A DNA stretch of 64,000 bases from Rickettsiales bacterium (lineage in GTDB: Bacteria; Pseudomonadota; Alphaproteobacteria; Rs-D84), in the NCBI GenBank assembly GCA_031283185.1, contig JAITCH010000009.1:1190-65189 (forward strand), in the 5' to 3' direction. This document shows, one piece after another, positions 1-12,792 of the stretch (position 1 is the first letter of the stretch; each line of letters opens with the position of its first letter). The notes beneath the pieces were generated by a model. It ran no database searches. It was not told the origin of the DNA and was given only the letters and a program-made list of their open reading frames with translations. The translations under genes and the position numbers were made by a program.

Positions 1-3000
1 TCCCATCGCCAGCGCAACGGAATCCGTCTTCGCATTGCACGCATTGCGTTCCGCCCGCCGATACATAGAATGGCGCGGGGCAAACCAGCCAAGTTGATTG
101 ACCCGGTGCGGATTGATAATTTGATCCGCTTGCCGCCGTGCAACCGGACGCGGTCGTTAAATTTGCGCCCGTTCCGATTGTTCCCGCCGGGCATTGTTTG
201 GGCGCAGTTAAATTCGCACCATCGCAATAATTACCCGCCCCGCAGTTGCGGCGTGTGCCGTCTCCGGGACAATAATATCCAACTCCGCAGTCCACAATCG
301 CGCCAGTTATGCCGTCAGTCCAATATCCGGGTGCGACTGCATTCGGCGCACACTGAGATTTCGCAGTTGAACCCGCCGCCGACCAAGTCCCCGCCGGACA
401 TACCGCACAATTCGCCGCCGAAGATGCCGTTGCAGATTCGCCATATCTTCCTGCCGGACATTGTTCGCGTGCCGTGCCGCCCGCGCAATAATACCCTGCC
501 CCGCAAGTTGTAATTTTGCCGTCCGCGCAGACATATCCTGCCGGGCAGTTGTCGGCGCAGTTCGCGCCCCATTTGCCCGCCGGACATTTGGCGCATTCAT
601 CCGCGCTCACCAAACCAATTGCGCCGTTATGATATGTTCCCACCGGGCAGGCGGTCGCAACGCTTGACCCTGCCGGGCAATATCCGCCCGAACACGGCAC
701 GCGATTCACACCCAAAGCGCACATATATCCTGCCGCGCAGACGGACTTTGTGCCATCAGTGCAGTGATTGCCGACTCCGCATTGTGTGGCATTACAGGCC
801 GCGGCATTTGCCGCACCTGCCAACGACCAAGTATTCGCCGGACAATAAGTTGATAATGCGGATCCGGCCGGACAATAATGACCTTCGGGACAATGGACGC
901 GCCGTCCGATGCCCGGGCAGTAATATCCGGCGGTGCAGGCATCCTTTGCAAAATTTTCGCACCAGTTGCCCGCTCCGCAAAGTTCCGCGGTGCAACTCGC
1001 CGCGCCGCTTGCGCCGGGCTCTGACCAAGTCCCCGCCGCGCAAGGTGTTGGCGCGCGCACATTTTCAGGGCAATACGCGCCAGCCGGACAAATTACAGAA
1101 AGTTCATCAACCGGGCAATACCGACCCGCGGCGCAAGGCGATTTTGATCCGCCAGCGCAAAGTTCCGTTTCGCCGCACAGCGCGACCTTGCAGTCGGATG
1201 CGGCGGAAGCATTTTTATAAGACCAGGTTCCGGCAGGACAGGTAGTCGCCGCATCGCTTCCCTCTGGGCAGTAATGACCTGCGGGGCAGTCGACGCGCGT
1301 GCCGTCCCCGGAACATACAAAGCCTGCGGGGCAAATTATTTTTGATCCGTCCGCGCACCAGTTGGCCTTGCCCGCCCATATTGGGTCGGCGTTGCATTCA
1401 AGGACGGAACAGGAACTTTCCCCTGCGATTGACCAGCGACCTTGGGGGCAGTTGCGCTGAACCGAAGACCCTGCCTCGCAGAATTTGCCTGCGGTGCAGT
1501 CGGCCAAAATTCCATTGCCAGCACAGAATTTTCCCGGCGAGCAAGTTTGGCGCACGCCGTTTCCGGGGCACCAGTTTCCGATTCCGCAGATTTCATTGGT
1601 GCACTCCGCCGCGCTTTTCGCGCCCTGTAATGACCAAGTGCCGACCGGGCAGTTTTCTTCGCCCTTACCGGTCTCGCAGAATTTACCCTCTGGACATTCG
1701 GTTTTTACGACCACATCATCCGCGCTTATAATGCAATAGAATCCTGCCGGGCATTCTTGTATTGCCGCATTTGTCCCCTCGCACCATTTGTTGTTCCCGC
1801 AAAGCGCACCAATGCAGTCGGCTTTTTTGACCGAGCCGATTGCCGACCAAGTTCCGTCTGGACAAGAAGTTTTCTTCGCTACGCCCGCCGCGCACCAACT
1901 GCCTGCTGGACAATCTATCTTTGTTCCATTGCCCGCGCAAAATGACCCGGCGGGGCATTCGGATTTAACGCCGTTTTCACACCAGTTGCCTGCGGCACAG
2001 ATTGCGGTTTTGCAGTCGGATGCGAGGGACGCGCCGGGCAAAGACCAAGTTCCGGCTTCGCAGACGGCGGGCGCGGATGATCCGGCCGGGCAGTAATATC
2101 CCGCCGGACATTCGGTAATTTTCCCATCTCCGGCGCAAATGCTGCCCGCGGGGCAAGGCCATTGCACTCCGTCCGCGCACCAGTTCCCTGCGGGACAAGC
2201 GGCGCAGTCTGATGCCTTGGTCGCGCCTGCGGCCTTTGCGGCGACCGCAAATCCGTCAAATGAAACGCTGCCAGCCGCAGACCAAGTTCCGACTGGGCAA
2301 GCGAATGAATCGCGCCCATCGCAATAATATCCTTCGGCGCATTCGCGGATGTTCGCGCCGCCATTCGGGCAAATAAAGCCGGGCGCACATTTGGTGCAGT
2401 CTTCGGATTTGCCGGGGCATTTGCCGGTTATGAAAACTTGATTGCGATATGTGTCGCCGTCTGCCAAGGCGGATACTTCACAGGTCGCGCCCGCCCAATG
2501 TCCAGCAGGACATACGACCTTGCCCACGCCATCCGGGCAGTAAAAGTTCCAACCTGCGTCCCCTTGGCGTTGTTCATTGCACGGACGGCAGACATTGTGG
2601 AAGGTTCGCGCGACAGAATTATCCGCAGGCTTTACATAATAGAATCCCGCGCCGCAGTTAATTATTTTCCCGTCTTCACAATAAGACTCTTCCGGGCAAA
2701 AATTCGGCGCGCAGTCGGATGCGGCGGACGCGCCATTCAAAGACCATTTTCCAACAGGGCAAAGGGTGGGCGCGGATGATCCAGCCGGACAATATGAACC
2801 TGCGGGGCATTCGGTCTTTTTTCCATCTCCGGCGCAAGTGAATCCGCTTGGGCATTGGGCGGCGCAAGCCATTCCCATAAATTCGCTGCGGCGCGGATTG
2901 TATCCCTTGGATTTCATAAACGCGTCCAGTGCGTCAATCAGTGTGTCTTTGGAAACCGACCAAGTCCCCGCCGGACAACTTTCAATACTGCCGGGATCGA

Positions 3001-3694
3001 AACAGAATGAACCTTCGGGACACATCATACATTCGGCGATGGATTGCGCTTTGTTGGTTTCGGTTAGCGTTCCCATCGGACAAGGCGCGCGGGCAGATCC
3101 GCCGATGCAGTAATAACCTTTGCCGCAAGGCGAGCAGGTGCCGTTGTCGAATCCGAATGAAACGCGATTGTATGTGCCGGGCTGACAGCACATTACAGGT
3201 GCGAAGTATAAATTCACATAGTCGTCCATTGATTTCACCGGGACTTTTTTGCCCCAGATTGTGGATGATATTTCGCGGGCGAGTTTCCACATCTCGTTCA
3301 AGTATTCCATATCTTGGGCGACGGTGTCGGTTTGGGGGATAGTGCTGTAAGAATCAAAGCGCGGCAGTTCGTCATTGAAATATGGCGAGCAAGATCCAAG
3401 CATAGCGATGTTGTGTGCATACCAAGAATCGGCGGGTGAAAGGCTGATTGGGATTCCCATATTTTGCGCGTGGCCGATTACGACATCGTAGAGTTTGTCC
3501 TTGGTGTCAGCGATTTTTTGGATTTCTGGTGCGATGTTTTGCGGGTCAAGCGCGGGGTATGACGAGACCGCGATACAGTTAGGTCCTTGGCAGAAAGGTC
3601 TACCTGAAATATCGACGGCTGCTGACGCGTTTAGGGTGCAAAAGCATAAGCCTATAAAGGCTTGAATTTTGATAAAATTCCAAGTCCGAAGCAA
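1..3694 (-). CDS. Very large secreted cysteine-rich repeat protein (GCC2_GCC3 / ephrin-receptor-like CPAGTWS / CPAGxYC repeats), 3' end beyond window
   Basis: Minus-strand frame is open from TTG at 3694 to position 1, which is why the ORF track (which needs a stop) does not list it. A GAGGAAGGA Shine-Dalgarno lies 7 nt upstream. The N-terminus reads LLRTWNFIKIQAFIGLCFCTLNASAAVD, a signal peptide with AXA cleavage. A unique domain of about 150 aa follows, then dozens of tandem CxxC...CPAG(T/S)WS / CPAGYYC units seen as the DNA repeat gaccaagtccccgccgg. All plus-strand ORFs here are shadows of this gene. Confidence 0.6.
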   Translation of the reverse strand, partial: MLRTWNFIKIQAFIGLCFCTLNASAAVDISGRPFCQGPNCIAVSSYPALDPQNIAPEIQKIADTKDKLYDVVIGHAQNMGIPISLSPADSWYAHNIAMLGSCSPYFNDELPRFDSYSTIPQTDTVAQDMEYLNEMWKLAREISSTIWGKKVPVKSMDDYVNLYFAPVMCCQPGTYNRVSFGFDNGTCSPCGKGYYCIGGSARAPCPMGTLTETNKAQSIAECMMCPEGSFCFDPGSIESCPAGTWSVSKDTLIDALDAFMKSKGYNPRRSEFMGMACAAQCPSGFTCAGDGKKTECPAGSYCPAGSSAPTLCPVGKWSLNGASAASDCAPNFCPEESYCEDGKIINCGAGFYYVKPADNSVARTFHNVCRPCNEQRQGDAGWNFYCPDGVGKVVCPAGHWAGATCEVSALADGDTYRNQVFITGKCPGKSEDCTKCAPGFICPNGGANIRECAEGYYCDGRDSFACPVGTWSAAGSVSFDGFAVAAKAAGATKASDCAACPAGNWCADGVQWPCPAGSICAGDGKITECPAGYYCPAGSSAPAVCEAGTWSLPGASLASDCKTAICAAGNWCENGVKSECPAGSFCAGNGTKIDCPAGSWCAAGVAKKTSCPDGTWSAIGSVKKADCIGALCGNNKWCEGTNAAIQECPAGFYCIISADDVVVKTECPEGKFCETGKGEENCPVGTWSLQGAKSAAECTNEICGIGNWCPGNGVRQTCSPGKFCAGNGILADCTAGKFCEAGSSVQRNCPQGRWSIAGESSCSVLECNADPIWAGKANWCADGSKIICPAGFVCSGDGTRVDCPAGHYCPEGSDAATTCPAGTWSYKNASAASDCKVALCGETELCAGGSKSPCAAGRYCPVDELSVICPAGAYCPENVRAPTPCAAGTWSEPGASGAASCTAELCGAGNWCENFAKDACTAGYYCPGIGRRVHCPEGHYCPAGSALSTYCPANTWSLAGAANAAACNATQCGVGNHCTDGTKSVCAAGYMCALGVNRVPCSGGYCPAGSSVATACPVGTYHNGAIGLVSADECAKCPAGKWGANCADNCPAGYVCADGKITTCGAGYYCAGGTAREQCPAGRYGESATASSAANCAVCPAGTWSAAGSTAKSQCAPNAVAPGYWTDGITGAIVDCGVGYYCPGDGTRRNCGAGNYCDGANLTAPKQCPAGTIGTGANLTTASGCTAASGSNYQSAPGQSTWLVCPAPFYVSAGGTQCVQCEDGFRCAGDG

Positions 3695-3875
3695 TTGATT
3701 TCCTTCCTCTGCCAACAAGTCTAGCAAATCAAACCAAGGTCAATCAAGTGAGTTTTATTGCCTAAATATTATTTTGAAACGTTATATGCAGAACTTAAAA
3801 ATTCAAATAATAAAATAATTTTGATTTGCTTTTACATACAGGACAATATAATATAAATATGGAGGAAAGCCAAAT

Positions 3876-4859
3876 ATGATGCGTTCCATAGAAATATGTG
3901 CAGGTGCTGGTGGTCAGGCTATTGGACTTGAACAAGCAGGTTTTTCACATACCGCACTTATAGAGATTGAAAAACTAGCATGCGATACCTTACGCACAAA
4001 TCGTCCAAATTGGAATATAATTGAAACAGATTTGCATAATTGGTCAGCCAAACAATATGAGGGTATTGACCTGTTCGCAGGTGGCATTCCATGTCCACCA
4101 TTTTCTGTCGCAGGAAAACAGTTAGGAAAAGATGACCCCCGGGATCTTTTTCCAACCGCATTACGGCTTATATCCGAATGCGATCCAAAGTCCATCTTGC
4201 TTGAAAATGTAAAAGGGCTTTTTAGTTCCAAATTTGACGAATATCGTGAACACATAAAATCACAACTAGAATCCATGGGGTATGTTTGCTTTTGGAATTT
4301 GATAAATTCCTGTAATTATGGTTTGCCTCAGTTGCGTCCGAGAACAATTCTAATCGCATTAAAAAAAGAATATGCTCAACATTTTAGATGGCCATTGGGC
4401 ATCATCGCCCCACCTCCAACCATAGGTGATTTATTAAAGGAAGAGCTCGCTTCCAATGGCTGGCTTGGCGCGGAAGAATGGGCAAAAAAGGCGGATTGGA
4501 TTGCCCCTACATTAGTCGGTGGAAGCAAAAAACATGGTGGTGCCGATCTAGGGCCAACTCGCGCCAAAGAAGCATGGGCAAAGCTTGGAATAGATGGTTG
4601 TGGGTTGGCGGATAAAGCGCCGGAAAAAAATTTTGTGGGAATACCACGGCTTACCATACAAATGGCGGCTTTGGTGCAAGGATTTCCGAAATGTTGGCAA
4701 TTTTCAGGCAAAAAAACACCTGCATACAGACAAATAGGCAACGCTTTTCCTCCACCCGTTGCAAAAGCAATGGGCAAAGCGATAATGAGGGCTTTGATAG
4801 CCGGAGAAGAAATAAAAGAAGGTGAAGAATATGGTAAAAAACTTAGGCTCGCGAGCTAA
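3876..4859 (+). CDS. DNA cytosine-5 methyltransferase (Dcm family)
   Basis: Motif I EICAGAGG, motif IV PCPPFS, motif VI ENVKGL, motif X QIGNAFPP. AT-rich context. Confidence 0.85.
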   Translation: MMRSIEICAGAGGQAIGLEQAGFSHTALIEIEKLACDTLRTNRPNWNIIETDLHNWSAKQYEGIDLFAGGIPCPPFSVAGKQLGKDDPRDLFPTALRLISECDPKSILLENVKGLFSSKFDEYREHIKSQLESMGYVCFWNLINSCNYGLPQLRPRTILIALKKEYAQHFRWPLGIIAPPPTIGDLLKEELASNGWLGAEEWAKKADWIAPTLVGGSKKHGGADLGPTRAKEAWAKLGIDGCGLADKAPEKNFVGIPRLTIQMAALVQGFPKCWQFSGKKTPAYRQIGNAFPPPVAKAMGKAIMRALIAGEEIKEGEEYGKKLRLAS

Positions 4860-5394
4860 ACTGCGTCAATATTTATTTGATAATATAGGAAAAGTGTTGT
4901 CTTCCAATGAACTGCGTGAAGTGGCTGGGACTTCAGAATGGGGGCAGCGTGTCCGTGAATTACGCGATGAAGAAGGTCTACAAATCTTAACACACAATGA
5001 CAGATCCACATTAAAACCCGGTCAATATATTTTGGAAACAGAGAAACCAAAACCTGCATTCGCTCGTGAAATCAGCAAAGAAACCCGCGCATATGTCTTG
5101 GATCGGAATGGCTTTACTTGTCAAATGTGCGGTGCTGTTGCCGGGGAGCCACACCCTTATGATACCACCAAGAAAACACGCCTTCATATTGGACACATAA
5201 TAGATAAAAGCATGGGTGGCACAGATGATTATTCTAATTTGCGCGCAATTTGTAGTATATGTAATGAAGGGGCATCAAATATCACACTTGAACGACCATC
5301 TTATGAAAAATTATTAATACAAATTCGTCGTGCCAATGGCGGAGATCAAAAGAAAATCTTAGAATGGCTAAAAAATAAGTTTCAAGATTTCTAA
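4822..5394 (+). CDS. HNH endonuclease (candidate restriction or nicking partner of the methyltransferase)
   Basis: CQMCG...HIGHIID...NLRAICSICN bba-Me/HNH signature. Overlaps the methyltransferase 3' end by 38 nt (translational coupling). Confidence 0.65.
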   Translation: MKNMVKNLGSRAKLRQYLFDNIGKVLSSNELREVAGTSEWGQRVRELRDEEGLQILTHNDRSTLKPGQYILETEKPKPAFAREISKETRAYVLDRNGFTCQMCGAVAGEPHPYDTTKKTRLHIGHIIDKSMGGTDDYSNLRAICSICNEGASNITLERPSYEKLLIQIRRANGGDQKKILEWLKNKFQDF

Positions 5395-5509
5395 GATTAA
5401 AAAGGATTTTCCATGGAAACTAAGGGCAATGCTTTTATAGCATTTATAAATCTTAAAAACTATGATTTTAAACCATATAGTTTTTAAGGAATAAAAAAGA
5501 TTTGAAATT

Positions 5510-5902
5510 ATGAGCACAAAATTTATCGAATATAAAAATTTTATAAAGATTTCAGCGCATCTTGTGAACCACGGATATATAACCCACTGGAATCGGGTTG
5601 ATGATAATGGGGCCGATTTTATTTGTATCCACAACAGGACTTGCGCCATATTCAAGATTCAGTTGAAGTCACGAATCACCGTGGATCCCAAAAAATATGC
5701 AGGCAAGAATATATTTATGGCATTTCCTAAAAGAGAAAAATTCCCCAATAAGGATTGGGTAATTGTCAAACATGATGCATTGTTAAAAATTTATCATAAT
5801 ATGATCACACCTAATAAAATCAGAAGTTCACCCAATGTTCCGAACAAAGATTGGAACGCCATAAAGAAAATATCTATTATTCCACCATTTGATTTTTCTT
5901 AA
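5510..5902 (+). CDS. Hypothetical protein, possible small PD-(D/E)xK-like nuclease
   Basis: 130 aa, AT-rich island. Weak D...QxK pattern (GADFICIH...AIFKIQLK). No confident homology from sequence alone. Confidence 0.35.
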   Translation: MSTKFIEYKNFIKISAHLVNHGYITHWNRVDDNGADFICIHNRTCAIFKIQLKSRITVDPKKYAGKNIFMAFPKREKFPNKDWVIVKHDALLKIYHNMITPNKIRSSPNVPNKDWNAIKKISIIPPFDFS

Positions 5903-5918
5903 AAAGTAATTCGATCGT

Positions 5919-6446
5919 CTAAATCTCTGAGTCTGGATTGATTTTAATGGCATAGCGGTTCAGAACATTGAAAAACTTCTGCTCGCTCTTTTCATCCCTA
6001 AATCCCATCAGCATATTTCCGTATTTTTCACGCGCCCGTTTAATGCGCCACTCCGCCAATCGCTTTATCCCGAATTTATAATCTTTGACCTTATAAACAT
6101 CCACGATTTTGGATAAGTCTTCCAAATGGAATGTAATTTTATTTATAACTTTCACAGGCGCGTTATTGCGATAATGGCATTCGTTATCTTCGCCGCAGAA
6201 ATACCAGTTGTCATTGTTTTCCAGTTCATAAACTTCGCCGTTGATTTCCGAAGAAAAAACATAAAGCGGCCTATGCCCAAAGGTATCTATTAGGGCGACT
6301 TTGGGCAAAGTCCTGGCCTTAATATACATTGGCTGTCGAATTTTAATCGAAGCATTAACATCTTCGTGCGTCTTAAATTGCGGGATGAGTTCATCGCCGA
6401 CTTCCAACTTTTCTTGCGTTCCGTGAAAAAATCTTAAATTTTCCAT
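5919..6446 (-). CDS. Hypothetical protein (island cargo)
   Basis: 175 aa ORF convergent with the island genes. AT-rich codon usage. R...SS...ExE-like residue order noted but unproven. Confidence 0.4.
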   Translation of the reverse strand: MENLRFFHGTQEKLEVGDELIPQFKTHEDVNASIKIRQPMYIKARTLPKVALIDTFGHRPLYVFSSEINGEVYELENNDNWYFCGEDNECHYRNNAPVKVINKITFHLEDLSKIVDVYKVKDYKFGIKRLAEWRIKRAREKYGNMLMGFRDEKSEQKFFNVLNRYAIKINPDSEI

Positions 6447-6488
6447 AAAATGATTATATCACAAACCCGGAAATTTTTCTATTTATAG

Positions 6489-7478
6489 TTATCTTGTTTT
6501 CGCCAAATACCATTTGATTGTTTTGACGATCCCGGTATCAAAATTTTCTTTTGCGCGCCAGCTCAATTCCTTTTCCAACTTGGTCGCATCAATCGCGTAT
6601 CTGCGGTCGTGTCCTAATCTATCCGCGACAAATGAAATCTGATTTTTATATGAAACGCCATCCGCTCGCGGCTGTTCCCTATCTAGAAGTCCGCATATAG
6701 TATTCACAATCTGCAAATTATTCCGCTCATTTCGTCCGCCGACATTATAAACCTCGCCAGCAACTCCGTTATGATAAATCAAGTCAATCGCCTTGCAGTG
6801 GTCGGCGACATAAAGCCAGTCGCGCACATTTTTCCCATCGCCATAAATCGGAATTGGTTCGCCCGCCAACGCCTTGCGGATTATGGTTGGGATTAGTTTC
6901 TCCGCGTGTTGTTTCGGTCCATAATTATTGGAACAATTTGAAGTCGTTATATTCATTCCATATGTATGGAATGCGGCGCGAACTATGTGGTCGCTTGCGG
7001 CCTTAGATGCGGAATAAGGGCTGTTCGGTGCGTATGGCGTGGCTTCGGTGAAAAGTCCAGTTTCCCCCAAAGATCCATAAACTTCATCAGTTGATATATG
7101 ATGGAATCGCGGCGTTTTATCTTCGCCCCAGTGCGCCCTCGCGGCCTCTATTAAATTCGCTGTTCCGATGACATTGGTTTCATAAAATCCCAGCGGCGTT
7201 TTAATGGATCTATCAACATGACTTTCTGCTGCGAAGTGAATCACCCCTTGAATATTATAATGTTCAAAGTGGGTTTGAAGCATCCCAAAATGGCAAATGT
7301 CGCCCAACACGAATTGATAATTTGGAACGCCGTCCATTTCGGCGAGATTGCTTTTATCGCTGCCCTGCACCATAGAATCCAAACAAATGATTTTGTATTT
7401 CGGATGTTTTTTTGCGAAGTAAGGAATGAAGTTAGAACCGATAAATCCCGCGCCGCCGGTTATAAGAATTGGTTTCAT
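6489..7478 (-). CDS. rmlB: dTDP-glucose 4,6-dehydratase
   Basis: ILITGGAGFIGSNF Rossmann motif and the YxxxK catalytic region. ATG at 7478 overlaps the rmlD stop (ATGA); the track ORF extends to 7499. Confidence 0.9.
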   Translation of the reverse strand: MKPILITGGAGFIGSNFIPYFAKKHPKYKIICLDSMVQGSDKSNLAEMDGVPNYQFVLGDICHFGMLQTHFEHYNIQGVIHFAAESHVDRSIKTPLGFYETNVIGTANLIEAARAHWGEDKTPRFHHISTDEVYGSLGETGLFTEATPYAPNSPYSASKAASDHIVRAAFHTYGMNITTSNCSNNYGPKQHAEKLIPTIIRKALAGEPIPIYGDGKNVRDWLYVADHCKAIDLIYHNGVAGEVYNVGGRNERNNLQIVNTICGLLDREQPRADGVSYKNQISFVADRLGHDRRYAIDATKLEKELSWRAKENFDTGIVKTIKWYLAKTR

Positions 7479-8305
7479 CGCACTAACTCCTTTATGCATT
7501 CTTTAAGGCTGACGCGCCATTCTGGAATTTCTATGCCTAGGGTCTTTATGATTTTGGATTTGTCCAGGACGGAGTATTCCGGGCGTTTTGCCTTGGTCGG
7601 ATATTGGGCGGTGGTTATGGGATTGACATTGCAGTTCAGTCCAGATAATTTCATAATGTTTTTTGCAAATTCATACCAACTTACATAGCCTTCGTTTGTG
7701 TAGTGAAAGATCTCCTTGAACCCGCCATTGACCATTGGCGCGATTTTAAGAATTACATCAGACAGGTCGCGTGCATTTGTCGGCGTTCCGTGCTGATCGT
7801 AGACAACATTTATTTCATCTTTTTGCGAACCGAGTTTCAGCATTGTCTTAACAAAGTTATTTCCATAAGGACTGTAAAGCCAAGCCGTCCGAATGATCGC
7901 GGCGGATTCGGCATTTTCCATCACGGCAAGTTCACCCGCAAGTTTTGTCGCGCCATATACGGATTGCGGATTGCAGTTTGATGTTTCCGAATATAGAGAA
8001 TTTGCAAGCCCGTCGAATACATAATCTGTGGAAAGGTGAATGATGTTCCGTCCGTATTTTGCAAGATTACCCGCGCCGATATGGTTGACGGCGTTGGCGA
8101 TTTCTGGTTCGTCTTCGGCCTTGTCGACTGCGGTGTAAGCGGCGCAGTTGACGACGCAGTCATATTTGTCGGACTTGAAAAAATCCGCGACTGCTTTTTC
8201 GTTTGTTATGTCCAGTTCGTCCATATCAACATAGCGGGCTGTGTCGCCCAAAATGTCTTCCAAACAAGTTCCAAGTTGTCCGCGTGCACCTGTGATTAAA
8301 AGCAT
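7475..8305 (-). CDS. rmlD: dTDP-4-dehydrorhamnose reductase
   Basis: MLLITGARGQLG..., typical RmlD length and motifs. Confidence 0.85.
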   Translation of the reverse strand: MLLITGARGQLGTCLEDILGDTARYVDMDELDITNEKAVADFFKSDKYDCVVNCAAYTAVDKAEDEPEIANAVNHIGAGNLAKYGRNIIHLSTDYVFDGLANSLYSETSNCNPQSVYGATKLAGELAVMENAESAAIIRTAWLYSPYGNNFVKTMLKLGSQKDEINVVYDQHGTPTNARDLSDVILKIAPMVNGGFKEIFHYTNEGYVSWYEFAKNIMKLSGLNCNVNPITTAQYPTKAKRPEYSVLDKSKIIKTLGIEIPEWRVSLKECIKELVR

Positions 8306-8844
8306 CTTCCTAACTCCTTTAATAATGGATGGCGTTTGTCTTTTTCAGATAGAATTTCTTCGCCGGCCGGGATTTGCCAGTCAATGCCCAAAGCGGGATC
8401 GTTGTAAATCAAGCCGCCGTCAGCGGAAGGATCGTAAAAGTTGTCGCACTTGTATGCGAAGACTGCGGACGCGGAAAGGACGGCGAATCCGTGCGCGAAC
8501 CCGCGCGGAATCATCAACATACAATTATTTTCACCAGTTAGTTTTGCGGATATGTGCCGTCCGTATGTTGGAGATCCGGGGCGGAGGTCAACCGCAACAT
8601 CCAGGACAGAGCCTTCCAAACAGCGCACAAGTTTTGCCTGGGCGGACGCGCCGCGTTGAAAATGCAAACCGCGGATTGTGCCGTAATAGGATTGCGATTG
8701 GTTGTCTTGGACAAAGTTGTATTTCAAGCCTGCGTTTTCAAATGTTTTTTGATTGTATGTTTCGACGAAGTATCCGCGGACATCTGCGAAGACGCGCGGC
8801 TTTATCAAGATTACACCATCTATTTTAGTTGGTTCAAATTGCAT
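8296..8844 (-). CDS. rmlC: dTDP-4-dehydrorhamnose 3,5-epimerase
   Basis: 182 aa cupin. FVQDNQS...RGLHFQ motif. Confidence 0.85.
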   Translation of the reverse strand: MQFEPTKIDGVILIKPRVFADVRGYFVETYNQKTFENAGLKYNFVQDNQSQSYYGTIRGLHFQRGASAQAKLVRCLEGSVLDVAVDLRPGSPTYGRHISAKLTGENNCMLMIPRGFAHGFAVLSASAVFAYKCDNFYDPSADGGLIYNDPALGIDWQIPAGEEILSEKDKRHPLLKELGRCF

Positions 8845-9718
8845 TTTGATGATCCTTTAATACTTTGCGGAGATAGTCGGCGTATCCGCCGCGCTTGAAC
8901 TTTGCGATTTGCAATTCCATTCCGCATTCGTTGATGAATCCTTTTTCAAGAGCGATTTCTTCGGGACAGGATATTTTTATTCCGCGGGTTTCTTCAATCG
9001 CGCCTATAAAATTTGATGCCAGCATCAGACTTTTTTCCGTGCCTGCGTCAAGCCAAGTCGCGCCATATCCCAAATCCATAGTTTTTAAGCGACCTTCGGC
9101 GAGATATAAATTTGACAGGTCGGTTATTTCATATTCTCCGCGTGCGGATTTTTTAACCTTTTTTGCATATTGTGCGACATCGCCTGGATAACAATAAAGT
9201 CCGATTGCGGCGAAATTTGATTTTGGTTTTGCGGGCTTTTCTTCAATAGAAATTACATTTTTTTGTTTATCAAATTCCACGATACCAAATCGTTGCGGGT
9301 CGCTGACCTTGTATGTAAAAATGGTTGCATGGTTTGGGGTTGCTGAGAGTTTTTTTCCAGTATCGCTAAGGTATCCTGTATGAATTATATTGTCGCCCAA
9401 AATCATTGCAGTCTGTTCGCCGTTTATAAAGTCTTCACCAATAACGAATGCTTGGGCGATACCTTCGGGTTCTGGTTGCTGTGCATATTCAATATGGATA
9501 CCCCATTGCGATCCATCGTGAAGAAGATCGCGGAACATTGGGATGTCGCGCGGAGTTGAAATCAGTAATATATCGCGGATACCGAACATCATTAATGTTG
9601 ATAAAGGGTAATAGATCATCGGCTTGTCATAGACCGGCAGCATCTGTTTAGAGATGGAAAATGTCATAGGGTGAAGACGCGTGTTTAGGCCACCGGCAAG
9701 AATTATGCCCTTATTCAT
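8834..9718 (-). CDS. rmlA: Glucose-1-phosphate thymidylyltransferase
   Basis: MNKGIILAGGLNTRLHPMT... G-x-G-T-R-L signature. Confidence 0.9.
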   Translation of the reverse strand: MNKGIILAGGLNTRLHPMTFSISKQMLPVYDKPMIYYPLSTLMMFGIRDILLISTPRDIPMFRDLLHDGSQWGIHIEYAQQPEPEGIAQAFVIGEDFINGEQTAMILGDNIIHTGYLSDTGKKLSATPNHATIFTYKVSDPQRFGIVEFDKQKNVISIEEKPAKPKSNFAAIGLYCYPGDVAQYAKKVKKSARGEYEITDLSNLYLAEGRLKTMDLGYGATWLDAGTEKSLMLASNFIGAIEETRGIKISCPEEIALEKGFINECGMELQIAKFKRGGYADYLRKVLKDHQNAI

Positions 9719-9796
9719 TTTTACCTCGTATTTGATTCTTATCAGGATTTTACAACAAAGAATTAATTTGTCAACAGGTAATTTCGCAAATTAATT

Positions 9797-10615
9797 CTAA
9801 AACATATCAATGTGTGGACGCGAGCCATCAATTAAATAAGCGGCGGGCTGATTTGCATCCCAATCAATGCCAGTCTTTTTTACTGACGCGGGATTGCCAG
9901 CAATAAGGCAATTTGGCTCTATAAATTTTTTCGTAACTACTGAACGCACTGGAACGATGCAATGATCCGGAATGCCTGCCTTGGCAGTAAGAATCACATC
10001 GTGCCCGATCCATACATGGTTTCCAACGGATACGGGTTCTGTCGGCACATTAATGCATTCCCTAGTTTTTGCATCCAATACTGCGTGTCCATCGCAAAGT
10101 ATAAATACTTGCGCCAACATTAAATCATTTCCGATTTTTATTTGATTTCCACAGGACAGGACATTAAGTTTCGAGCCTGCTCCATTTTCCCCTACGATAA
10201 AACGATTGTTATCATAGAAAAGATCCAAATGCGCGTATTTCATATGAAAGTTTCTGCCTAATTCCACATAGTTATTGCAACCGCCATAATTGAACTTAAC
10301 ATTTATATTTCCGTGGCAGGGAAGATGAATGACTATTTTATTGTTTTTGTAAATGCTTCTATCTTTGGTATAGACATTATCAAAACCTACATTCAAAGAA
10401 AAGTTTCGGACTAATTCGCGGTATTTTTTCGATAGAACCATCGCCGGCGACATTATAAATTCGTGCGAATTACCCGACTCGTCAATTATTATAACAACAT
10501 TATCATTGTTGTGGGGGGGGGCGGACAATTGACCTCTAAGACTTCTCCGCATGCGTTTTGATGGAATGAACAGACACACTAATTTAATAAAGGTTTTGCG
10601 TTTGATTCTAAACAT
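9797..10615 (-). CDS. Sugar O-acetyltransferase (left-handed beta-helix, hexapeptide repeats) with 5' poly-C tract
   Basis: C-terminal hexapeptide-repeat region (VWIGHDVILTAKAGIPDHCIV...). A C9 tract encodes APPH at codons 31-34. Confidence 0.7.
   Translation of the reverse strand: MFRIKRKTFIKLVCLFIPSKRMRRSLRGQLSAPPHNNDNVVIIIDESGNSHEFIMSPAMVLSKKYRELVRNFSLNVGFDNVYTKDRSIYKNNKIVIHLPCHGNINVKFNYGGCNNYVELGRNFHMKYAHLDLFYDNNRFIVGENGAGSKLNVLSCGNQIKIGNDLMLAQVFILCDGHAVLDAKTRECINVPTEPVSVGNHVWIGHDVILTAKAGIPDHCIVPVRSVVTKKFIEPNCLIAGNPASVKKTGIDWDANQPAAYLIDGSRPHIDMF
10513..10521. repeat. Homopolymeric G9 (C9 on coding strand) inside the acetyltransferase CDS
   Basis: gtgggggggggcgg read directly. In-frame at this length. 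Confidence 0.9.
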
Positions 10616-10623
10616 TTGCAGTC

Positions 10624-11760
10624 CTATTCGATTTCACAATTCAAAGTCAATTCATGGACTGGGAACCAACCATAATTTGAATCCGTAAGGCTAAATTTAT
10701 ACCCCAAACCAAGCGAATCAATCATTGGCAGAATGTGCATCAGGTCATCATAATTATGATAAATGCTTAAAATTAATGTCGGTTTTTGTTCGCGTATAGT
10801 TTGCAGCGCACCTTTAAGGAAAAGTTGTTCTGCCCCTTCAATATCGACCTTTATCAAACCAACCTTGATTTTGTTTTCTTTAACATAATTATCCAAAGTT
10901 TCCATCTTGCATTTCAATTGTCCCGGCGCATCGAACGCCGCGCAATCCATATAACCCGTGCTGTCCGAAAAACCGACATTAATTGGAACAATGTTTTTTG
11001 CATTATTAAGCGCAATGTTGCGTTTCATTTCTTCAAAATTTCCCGTCAATACTTCCGCTGCATAAATTGGATTATTAGAGAAATGTCTAGCGAATATAAG
11101 TGCAGAATCCCCAACATAAGCCCCCACATCAAAAATCGCAAGACCTTCTTTTATAATTCTATCTTTTGACTTTAATCCATCCAATCCGTATTCATCAACA
11201 AATATGGATGGCTCAAAAGTATTTTTATATAGCTTATATCCATTCAATTCAAAATATTTTCCATTCATATCAGTCGCTTTCATGGAATGCATTTTTTCAA
11301 ACTTCTTTATTTGTGTTTCATCATAAAAAATACACCACGGCGCGCAATTTGGTTTTTGATTTATCGGACGAGCTCCATTAACAAGCAAATTATTCGCCTT
11401 AACTAATCTGTAAAGATTGCAGTCAAAAATTTCTTTGCTTTGTTTATCCAATCCATTCAACATAGTTTTAGCGTCCGAATCAAATTGTTGTTGAGATATG
11501 CCAAGCAAACTTGGTAAAAATCCGAAACTAACAAAGTTGATCTTGCCTGCTGCATCATATAGTTCAGGCGATATGCTGGCATATTGTATTTTCACAACAA
11601 TAGAGAGAGGGGGGGGGGTGAATTTGCGCTTGATTATCCGTATACCGAACAAATATGTCCGCGAAACAGAATTGCTGCGTTTTTTGCTTAAAATTGGCAG
11701 ACCGAAAAAGAAGTATTTTTTATCGCCATTTGGGTATCTTTTTTTGCCTAAAACTTTCAT
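10624..11760 (-). CDS. FkbM-family methyltransferase (glycan modification) with internal poly-C tract
   Basis: C-terminal FkbM domain (FDVGAYVGDSA...IKVDIEGAE). The N-terminal part contains a C10 tract encoding TPPP. Confidence 0.65.
   Translation of the reverse strand: MKVLGKKRYPNGDKKYFFFGLPILSKKRSNSVSRTYLFGIRIIKRKFTPPPLSIVVKIQYASISPELYDAAGKINFVSFGFLPSLLGISQQQFDSDAKTMLNGLDKQSKEIFDCNLYRLVKANNLLVNGARPINQKPNCAPWCIFYDETQIKKFEKMHSMKATDMNGKYFELNGYKLYKNTFEPSIFVDEYGLDGLKSKDRIIKEGLAIFDVGAYVGDSALIFARHFSNNPIYAAEVLTGNFEEMKRNIALNNAKNIVPINVGFSDSTGYMDCAAFDAPGQLKCKMETLDNYVKENKIKVGLIKVDIEGAEQLFLKGALQTIREQKPTLILSIYHNYDDLMHILPMIDSLGLGYKFSLTDSNYGWFPVHELTLNCEIE
11609..11618. repeat. Homopolymeric G10 (C10 on coding strand) inside the FkbM methyltransferase CDS
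   Basis: gagagaggggggggggtg read directly. ORF is open at this length. Confidence 0.9.
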
Positions 11761-12792
11761 TTACAAAGTTCCCTTTTTCGCGCGGGCCAGGTCGGCATCC
11801 ATCATCATTTTCGCCAGTTCGGCGAATTTGACTTTTGGCGACCAGCCTAATATATCCTTGCCCTTGGCTGAATTGCCCAGCAGTTGTTCAACTTCGGCGG
11901 GACGATAAAATTTAGGATTGACCTTGACGACGACGCGCCCGGAATTTTTATCTGTTCCGATTTCGTTTTCGGCTTCGCCGCTGAATTCAATGTCCCACCC
12001 CAGTGCCTTGCCGGCTTCGGATATAAATTCGCGGATGGAATGCATTTCATTTGTAGAAATGACATAAGTATCGCCGTGTTCGTGTTGCAGCATCCGCCAC
12101 ATAAATTCAACATAGTCGCCTGCGAATCCCCAATCGCGTTTTGCGTTCAGGTTGCCCAATTCAACAGGTTTGTCCGTTTCGCCGACGGCGATGCGTGCGA
12201 AATGCTGGGTAATTTTGCGCGTAACGAATTCCTTGCCGCGGAAAGGGGATTCGTGATTGAATAGAATGCCTGAACAGGTGAAAACGCCAAAACTCTCGCG
12301 GTAATTGGTTGCCGCCCAGTGCGCCATAAGTTTTGCCACGCCATAGGGCGAACGCGGCCAAAATGGAGTTTTTTCAGTCTGCGGCACTTCTTGCACCTTG
12401 CCGAACATTTCGGATGTGGACGCTTGATAAAACCGGGTCTTCGGACTGAACTGGCGAATGGCTTCCAAGATATAAAGAACGCCCATACCATCGGCTTGGG
12501 CGGTATAAATTGGTTCTTCAAACGAAGCGGCGACAAATGATTGCGCGGCCAAGTTATAAAATTCATCCGGCTGATATTTTATAAGCAAACGGCAAATGTT
12601 GGTAAATTCAAGCAGGTCAAAATCCACCATTTCGATTTGGTCAAGTATTCCGTGTTCTTTAAGTTTTTCGAATGTATCGGTCGCGCCACGGCGGAATGCG
12701 CCGATGACCTTGTAGCCCTTGGACAGAAGAAGTTTTGCAAGGTATCCTCCATCTTGACCTGTTATCCCAGAAATGATTGCTGTTTTCGCCAT
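11761..12792 (-). CDS. gmd: GDP-mannose 4,6-dehydratase
   Basis: MAKTAIISGITGQDGGYLAKLLL... Start trimmed to the internal ATG (track ORF begins at 12858). Confidence 0.85.
   Translation of the reverse strand: MAKTAIISGITGQDGGYLAKLLLSKGYKVIGAFRRGATDTFEKLKEHGILDQIEMVDFDLLEFTNICRLLIKYQPDEFYNLAAQSFVAASFEEPIYTAQADGMGVLYILEAIRQFSPKTRFYQASTSEMFGKVQEVPQTEKTPFWPRSPYGVAKLMAHWAATNYRESFGVFTCSGILFNHESPFRGKEFVTRKITQHFARIAVGETDKPVELGNLNAKRDWGFAGDYVEFMWRMLQHEHGDTYVISTNEMHSIREFISEAGKALGWDIEFSGEAENEIGTDKNSGRVVVKVNPKFYRPAEVEQLLGNSAKGKDILGWSPKVKFAELAKMMMDADLARAKKGTL

Follow-up and report, generated by a model that had tools for sequence, protein, structure and literature searches.

Type II restriction-modification (R-M) systems can pair a 5-methylcytosine (m5C) methyltransferase with an HNH (beta-beta-alpha-metal) endonuclease, as exemplified by Hpy99I. 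A second setting in which a small nuclease gene accompanies an m5C methylase is the dcm-vsr locus of E. coli, where the 3' end of the methylase gene overlaps the nuclease gene; Vsr is the usual repair companion of m5C methylases and mends the T:G damage that arises from 5-methylcytosine (5mC). Here we describe an AT-rich island in a 64,000-nt stretch of contig JAITCH010000009.1 from a metagenome-assembled genome of a Rickettsiales bacterium (hereafter the window, in whose numbering all positions are given), which encodes a cytosine-5 DNA methyltransferase (M), an overlapping HNH-family endonuclease and two further proteins of 130 and 175 residues (orf130 and orf175). As a whole, the island is likely to consist of a mobile, type II-like R-M cassette made up of M and the HNH gene, together with two neighbors that are independent of it.

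The genes were delimited by a scan for open reading frames (ORFs), which returned four frames: 3876-4859, 4822-5394 and 5510-5902 on the forward strand and 5919-6446 on the reverse strand. These are the frames that an initial annotation of the region, made from the sequence, had already placed correctly. The public record labels their products as a DNA cytosine methyltransferase, an HNH endonuclease and two hypothetical proteins. The features of the island are as follows.

3666-3875, no strand assigned: upstream spacer, AT-rich (28% GC), lying divergently between a Cys-rich repeat gene (reverse strand) and M.
3876-4859, forward strand: M, cytosine-5 DNA methyltransferase, 327 aa, PF00145; NCBI MDR2685466.1 begins one codon later.
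4831-5394, forward strand: HNH-family endonuclease (R), 187 aa, Pfam HNH and HNH_5, NCBI MDR2685467.1; the maximal ORF runs from GTG 4822.
4831-4859, forward strand: overlap of the M stop and the HNH start, 29 nt (38 nt if the start is GTG 4822).
5395-5509, no strand assigned: spacer between the cassette and orf130, 115 nt, 23% GC, with an imperfect 31-nt inverted repeat at 5433-5507.
5510-5902, forward strand: orf130, 130 aa, LBB23_01690, a predicted stand-alone protein with a DREN/DUF4365-like PD-(D/E)xK fold.
5919-6446, reverse strand: orf175, 175 aa, LBB23_01695, a candidate Arr-like domain (residues 6-105) with a helical C-terminal extension.

The methyltransferase matches Pfam DNA_methylase (PF00145) over its full length (E = 5e-68) and also TIGR00675 dcm (E = 3e-48). 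All five motifs that are diagnostic of catalysis in cytosine-5 methyltransferases were found, namely motif I (AGAGG, residue 9), IV (PCPPFS, 72), VI (ENV, 110), VIII (QLRPR, 152) and X (GNAFP, 288), in agreement with the Dcm-type enzyme named in the initial annotation. The nearest solved structures are M.HaeIII and then M.HhaI; because only the catalytic half aligns to them, the target-recognition region of M gives no clue to specificity. We place the variable region of M at roughly residues 190-260, between motifs VIII and X. The PADLOC DruM2 model also matched M (E = 2e-145). Druantia type II was rejected, as the locus has no DruF, DruG or DruE and the neighbors are instead the Cys-rich repeat protein, HNH, orf130, orf175 and rmlBDCA; neither HNH nor orf130 nor orf175 matched the PADLOC Dru models. 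Since the Dru partner genes are absent, the DruM2 match reflects methylase similarity only.

Directly adjacent to M lies an endonuclease gene with an intact catalytic core. Its product matches Pfam HNH (PF01844, E = 2e-9) and HNH_5 (E = 6e-8) and consists of a conserved N-terminal domain followed by a CxxC...H-N-N...CxxC nuclease core. Two PADLOC models of type II restriction endonucleases (REases) were also matched, REase_II (PDLC03503) over residues 20-144 with E = 4e-10 and 38 bits, and PDLC03478 with E = 1e-6, both matches being weak and partial and reaching into the N-terminal domain. When 121 homologs were aligned, 52% of the positions were at least 98% conserved, and these comprise an N-terminal 'SEW..R.RELR.EEG..ILT' block as well as the CxxC, H-N-N and CxxC elements of the core. 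The N-terminal domain is predicted to bind DNA. The start codon that we favor is the ATG at 4831, which is the one used by NCBI and is preceded by a Shine-Dalgarno-like AAGGTG at 4819-4824; the predicted protein would then have 187 residues and its gene would overlap M by 29 nt. The initial annotation had described a 190-aa HNH nuclease and an overlap of 38 nt: both the nuclease and the overlap stand, and those two figures hold only for the ORF that opens at GTG 4822. A homing endonuclease was rejected, given the lack of an intron or intein context and the strict pairing with M. The Paracoccus HNH enzyme of PMC11473606 was likewise discarded as a relative, being a different, 16-kDa enzyme.

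The strictness of this pairing emerged from a genome scan that used one genome per species and confirmed 525 HNH relatives, from which the best 80 loci, picked by HNH similarity (68-86% identity to the window HNH protein), were analyzed. The HNH family as a whole comprises 7797 matches, and the best 120 of these share 75-86% identity with the window protein and are spread over many phyla. In 80 of the 80 loci an M homolog (52-82% identity) lies directly upstream of the HNH gene on the same strand, the same order as in the window, which supports for the M-HNH pair the R-M reading of the initial annotation. The HNH ATG start could be placed in 70 loci; in 44 of these it overlaps M, in 25 it follows at 0-20 nt and in one at 29 nt. 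M and HNH are thus inherited as a unit in unrelated genomes, among them Bacillota, Pseudomonadota, Spirochaetota, Cyanobacteriota, Bacteroidota, Acidobacteriota and one archaeon. Nucleotide similarity between the window and the 80 loci spans from about 3846 to about 5390, the extent of the cassette. Because the pairing holds in every one of the 80 loci, no orf130 or orf175 relatives accompany it and similarity is confined to the two genes, M-HNH is a self-contained mobile cassette. It is also found on a 14-kb Acidithiobacillus plasmid, where it adjoins an integrase. We make no claim that the HNH protein is more conserved than M, since the loci were selected by HNH similarity.

When all ORFs neighboring the pair were clustered, Vsr was the sole recurrent third gene (10 of 80 loci by clustering, 8 of 80 by tblastn), with six of these eight genes sitting 19-58 nt 3' of the HNH gene; other neighbors are transposases, integrases or unrelated genes. 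A search for Vsr across the window detected none. On the Pandoraea oxalativorans plasmid pPO70-1, a Dcm gene is followed by one (3077-4435 of that locus) for a 452-aa protein that carries Vsr at its N-terminus and HNH at its C-terminus, the HNH module being 37% identical to the window HNH protein. This protein is a repair-restriction fusion.

Many of the closest relatives of the cassette bear isolate names that appear to follow the style of termite-gut metagenome-assembled genomes. They belong to Rickettsiales, Clostridium, Spirochaetaceae, Chitinispirillales, Coriobacteriaceae, Azoarcus and the archaeon Methanofilum, and this points to exchange of the cassette between very different phyla across one habitat, the termite gut.

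M-HNH is very probably a cassette of the R-M type. M would methylate the C5 position of cytosine within a short target and so protect host DNA. Translation of the HNH protein would begin inside the 3' end of M; such an overlap would couple translation of the two genes, and the nuclease would therefore not be made without the methylase. Through its conserved N-terminal domain the HNH protein may read the same target in its unmethylated form, and it would cut there with a zinc-stabilized H-N-N beta-beta-alpha-metal site, cleavage being site-specific and blocked by methylation. The predicted outcome is that incoming DNA is restricted and the host becomes addicted to the cassette. Like m5C/HNH type II systems of the Hpy99I kind, the cassette consists of two genes side by side in one orientation, the first for a complete Dcm-type methylase and the second for an HNH nuclease that is small (about 190 aa) and has CxxC zinc ligands; its copies occasionally have a Vsr companion and are carried on plasmids and next to integrases or transposases. 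Unlike those systems, it shows no detectable close homology to a solved or gold-standard restriction enzyme, and its endonuclease is unusually conserved across phyla (70-86% identity), among loci that were themselves selected by HNH similarity. The dcm-vsr locus resembles it in the overlap of the methylase 3' end with a small nuclease gene, whereas the downstream gene here is HNH and not Vsr.

Certain observations count against the R-M interpretation of the pair. A sequence search of solved structures matched no restriction enzyme to the HNH protein, which appears to have no close characterized restriction-enzyme homolog, the PADLOC match amounting to 38 bits. Moreover, because the loci were chosen by HNH similarity, strict M-HNH pairing is demonstrated for close relatives only. 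Searches of the literature yielded no characterized homolog of the M-HNH pair.

We next turn to the two neighbors. The protein encoded by orf175 matches Pfam Arr-ms (PF12120) through residues 6-105, with E = 4e-5 and coverage of 97 of the 99 profile positions (1-97), and NCBIfam rifampin_ARR with E = 1e-4 (21.6 bits against a cut-off of 130); the second member of the orf175 family gives the same Pfam match. Pairwise BLASTP against Arr-2 gave E = 3e-6 at 23% identity. The Arr-2 sequence used was checked against PDB 9iba, from which one residue differed, and the search also returned Arr-ms 2hw2. A four-way alignment with Arr-2 and Arr-ms left as invariant His8 (His19 in Arr-ms), Gly9, Thr10, Leu14, Gly17, Leu20, Tyr41 (Tyr49), Glu67, Gly70, Asn77, Gly85, Tyr92, Arg93 and Pro97. 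In Arr-ms, His19, Tyr49 and Asp84 reportedly line the NAD+ site (Baysarowich et al. 2008; we checked the positions on 2HW2). Like Arr (Arr-ms 2HW2, Arr-2 9IBA), orf175 thus keeps the HGT, Y and E..G/N/YR..P blocks. It differs from Arr in being about 23-27% identical, in scoring under the family cut-off, in a shift of the acidic position by one column, and in having an internal insertion of about 26 residues and a helical C-terminal region, for a length of 175 as against 143-150 aa.

Arr belongs to the ARTD (H-Y-E-like) class of ADP-ribosyltransferases (PMC8883491). The initial annotation had noted residues R...SS...ExE in ADP-ribosyltransferase-like order; since Arr is of the ARTD class, this motif is not relevant to orf175. 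The R-S-E type (cholera-toxin-like, ARTC) was rejected, the sole match being Arr, and searches with orf175 against the ARTC families in Pfam, NCBIfam and PADLOC gave no match. The kind of enzyme that had been proposed is therefore upheld by the Arr match and its clade is not, the signature being His8, Tyr41 and the acidic residues 74-76. If the assignment is right, orf175 would act as an NAD+-dependent ADP-ribosyltransferase; nothing points to rifamycins as its substrate.

It is somewhat unlikely that orf175 lies outside the Arr family and that its match reflects chance or a shared small beta-rich fold, and there are data on that side. The Arr-ms score of 24.1 bits falls short of the curated gathering cut-off of 25, the column of Arr Asp84 holds Leu75 in orf175 with Glu74 and Glu76 on either side, so that the acidic residue is offset by one column, and the AF2 model built from a two-sequence alignment has a pLDDT of 47 and is unusable; each of these tells against the Arr assignment. 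Searches of solved-structure sequences, direct and with a profile, brought up Arr at E of about 0.5-1.3, alongside chance matches, to TRAP with single-sequence queries and to rotavirus VP4 with the profile, and there are two sequences of the orf175 type in 5.8 billion. What speaks for the family is that the match spans 97 of 99 profile positions and recurs in NCBIfam and in the second member, that the shared residues are the signature blocks xHGT...L..G..L, h-Y-h, E..G, N and YR...P, and that the pairwise BLASTP comparison with Arr-2 gives E = 3e-6. We therefore regard orf175 as probably a divergent, lineage-restricted Arr-like ADP-ribosyltransferase of the H-Y-acid type, an assignment that is not secure.

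The orf175 gene is convergent with orf130, from which 16 nt separate it. On its other side it follows rmlB in tandem, after a 42-nt gap and on the same strand, and it stands at the tail of the rml genes. The promoter-like match that scores best in the region (6481-6453, reverse strand) falls in this gap. Its sole homolog, at 65% identity, belongs to another genome of similar GC and lies among housekeeping genes, between GIY-YIG, His_Phos_1 (histidine-phosphatase) and Mur-ligase genes with no R-M genes nearby. Plasmids and phages were searched and held no orf175 relatives.

For orf130, the closest described protein is DREN, the nuclease of SPARDA systems, which corresponds to DUF4365 and whose triad in NbaSPARDA is D41/Q60/K62 on strands beta2 and beta3 (PMC12205087). 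An AF2 model of orf130 from a two-sequence alignment (pLDDT 81, pTM 0.76) shows a helix, five strands and a helix, and a Foldseek search of the PDB with this model returned the SPARDA DREN-APAZ chain 9qbq_C at the top (probability 0.99, TM 0.54, E = 0.03), with PvuII and the Hachiman HamA nuclease lower in the list. A word-index search found only orf130 itself and one protein of 43% identity. With an exhaustive profile search, 393 representative clusters (at 50% identity) came up at E of at most 0.001, 57 of them at E of at most 1e-10; the majority are free-standing proteins with lengths of 120-160 aa. Alignment of 79 relatives left D36, Q51 and K53 as the sole invariant columns, with E7, D31, R55, K62, Y63, H88 and D89 near-invariant. 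The three invariant residues map to model strands 34-41 and 47-52, and D36/Q51/K53 thus have the same D...QxK arrangement on strands beta2 and beta3 as the triad of DREN. Because the orf130 triad is arranged as in DREN, the PD-(D/E)xK-like D...QxK suspected in the initial annotation was right, and orf130 would probably act as a Mg2+-dependent nuclease through D36, Q51 and K53.

Unlike the SPARDA enzyme, orf130 is a free-standing protein of 130 aa that lacks an APAZ domain and has no Argonaute gene close to it. A SPARDA system was rejected for this locus, since orf130 is unfused to APAZ and its neighbors are HNH and orf175 with no short Argonaute. Against the nuclease assignment stand the lack of any Pfam match (E up to 1) and the fact that no Foldseek match reached an E value of 0.001, the best being 0.03. 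Searches of NCBIfam and PADLOC with orf130 were also negative, there was no significant match to Pfam PF14280, and PDB sequences gave nothing with either the single sequence or the 79-sequence profile. Among the 79 relatives, eight match DUF4365 weakly (best E = 9e-4), one matches Mrr_cat_2 and one has an Mrr_N domain.

The relatives of orf130 occur in varied settings. One precedes type I hsdM-hsdS and an integrase. Another has two Dam-like methylases close by, along with an IS66-like transposase and a fragment of an integrase (as read from translations), and a third, on an Enterococcus plasmid, adjoins a type I toxin and an IS3 element; on two other plasmids the relatives are followed by overlapping unknown genes, next to recombinases or Tn3. 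A search of phages gave no orf130 relatives. A scan for related loci with a narrower orf130 alignment yielded six metagenome loci and one viral locus, too few for neighborhood statistics. On a plasmid of Paracoccus sp. Arc7-R13, four overlapping genes (2230-8615 of that locus) encode, in turn, a type IIG enzyme of the MmeI kind (914 aa), a protein of 137 aa that resembles orf130, a helicase (DEAD/ResIII, 682 aa) and a nuclease (T5orf172/MUG113, 396 aa). All but the first of these proteins lacked a PADLOC match, and the four genes are possibly an uncharacterized defense operon.

From these contexts we read orf130 as a putative independent small nuclease gene of a mobile or defense-island habitat and not as a part of the cassette. 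Its family has the signature E7...D36...Q51-x-K53 and no Pfam or PADLOC model of its own. That this is an unnamed family of stand-alone, DREN-like mini-nucleases serving as independent or plug-in defense effectors beside methyltransferase-based systems is a distinctly unlikely reading. If it were true, the partners of orf130 would span m5C type II systems, type I hsdMS, paired Dam-like enzymes and the MmeI-like/helicase/T5orf172 set, and orf130 might fill the slot that Vsr takes in other copies of the cassette.

With the neighbors set apart, two other roles for the HNH protein have to be weighed against that of a cognate restriction enzyme. It could be a nuclease that happens to adjoin M and is either methylation-dependent (type IV, McrA-like) or non-specific. 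The HNH domain of E. coli McrA is indeed its best match among solved structures (6ghc, E = 0.017), one JGI record calls a homolog McrA, and there is no strong match to a characterized type II enzyme. However, McrA aligns to residues 71-163 alone, that is to the HNH region; the N-terminal domain has no match there, and the test for a McrA-type 5mC-reading domain was negative. The strict and mostly overlapping pairing with one methyltransferase family in all 80 loci is moreover the signature of a cognate pair, and coupling a 5mC-dependent nuclease to a 5mC methylase would be lethal to the host, so that we hold a McrA-like role to be very unlikely. Alternatively, the HNH protein might replace Vsr and nick the T:G mismatches that come from deaminated 5-methylcytosine, which would make the locus a solitary methylase with its repair enzyme. 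The HNH gene does hold the place, overlapping end included, that vsr has beside E. coli dcm (a point of general knowledge), and its family is strongly conserved. Yet the 8-10 loci counted above have a true Vsr gene alongside the pair, where two enzymes for the same job would be redundant, and Vsr is fused to an HNH module in the Pandoraea plasmid protein, which leaves the substitution highly improbable.

A further proposal, the one made in the initial annotation, is that all four genes form one defense module to which orf130 (as a nuclease) and orf175 (as an ADP-ribosyltransferase) contribute extra effector or immunity parts; this is extremely unlikely in that, although the genes are adjacent in one AT-rich stretch and orf130, with its nuclease fold, has relatives that often stand beside DNA methyltransferases of other classes (type I hsdMS, two Dam-like, MmeI-like type IIG), none of the 80 cassette loci carries an orf130 or orf175 relative within 7 kb, similarity to other cassettes stops at the HNH stop codon, the 115-nt spacer of 23% GC parts orf130 from the cassette, orf175 runs the other way, following rmlB in tandem, its sole homolog is at an unrelated locus with none on plasmids or phages, and neither protein matches any PADLOC model. 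Both neighboring ORFs have relatives at unrelated loci, the orf175 homolog and the orf130 family alike, a finding that the initial annotation had itself listed as one that would refute its proposal, and they are independent of the M-HNH cassette.

A lead to the target of the cassette came from counts of palindromes. Relative to expectations from a maximal-order Markov model over window positions 1-64000, several are strongly avoided (observed/expected): among 4-mers ACGT 1/88, GTAC 4/61, CATG 32/228, AGCT 27/78 and GGCC 130/297, and among longer words GGWCC 15/91, GGCGCC 0/~37, TGCGCA 0/31, GATATC 1/23 and TCGCGA 1/22.5. Avoidance this extreme suggests that the lineage has long been exposed to type II enzymes of many specificities. 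With the cassette flanks of the 80 loci pooled, the 5-mer most depleted was GGWCC, whose observed/expected ratio (O/E) was 0.63 overall and fell under 0.5 for 33 of 75 loci; a small control of 14 cassette-free loci (108 kb) from unmatched taxa gave 0.83. GGWCC as the target of the cassette is a suggestive but weak lead. AvaII, which cuts GGWCC, was considered as a relative of the HNH protein and rejected, being a PD-(D/E)XK enzyme.

The base composition of the island is less distinctive than it first appeared. The initial annotation had described a sharp GC drop to about 35%; the stretch is AT-rich as stated, and the measured mean over 3700-6480 is 38.4%, against 47.3% for the window. By gene, GC is 43% in M, 40% in HNH, 34% in orf130 and 40% in orf175, and the two spacers have 23-28%. 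The sharpness of the drop is mostly a contrast with the unusual repeat gene upstream, which has 58-62% GC, and the low GC of the island is not unique in the window, since the polysaccharide genes at 9.0-11.8 kb are equally AT-rich. This second AT-rich stretch (9000-11800, 38% GC) lies past rmlA and encodes a 272-aa protein and a 378-aa FkbM-type methyltransferase. The repeat gene, on the reverse strand from about 3680 to beyond the start of the window, encodes a Cys-rich protein of more than 1200 aa built of 'CPAG.YC...C..G.WS' repeats, with an apparent signal-like segment at its N-terminus; a Pfam scan of it gave no match. On the 3' side of the island, rmlB, rmlD, rmlC and rmlA follow on the reverse strand and then sugar-modifying genes.

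The spacer at 3666-3875 is the presumed promoter region of M-HNH. It holds a weak sigma-70-like match at 3774-3802, which shuffled controls score as well, and a promoter scan of the region as a whole did no better than on shuffled sequence. The inverted repeat at 5433-5507 has 31-nt arms that are 74% complementary around a 13-nt loop and could be a terminator or an operator; the terminator count of the region was less than two standard deviations above that of shuffled sequence. As signs of an insertion, direct and inverted repeats were sought on either flank, and only short matches at chance level turned up.

The locus is routine, being one more copy of a very widespread methylase/HNH cassette that already carries generic labels in the public record. 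The only mildly novel element is orf130, as a pointer to a family of free-standing SPARDA-type nuclease domains that is uncurated and recurs in mobile and defense contexts. As the cassette is present in hundreds of species and no characterized member was found, determination of its target would annotate many genomes.

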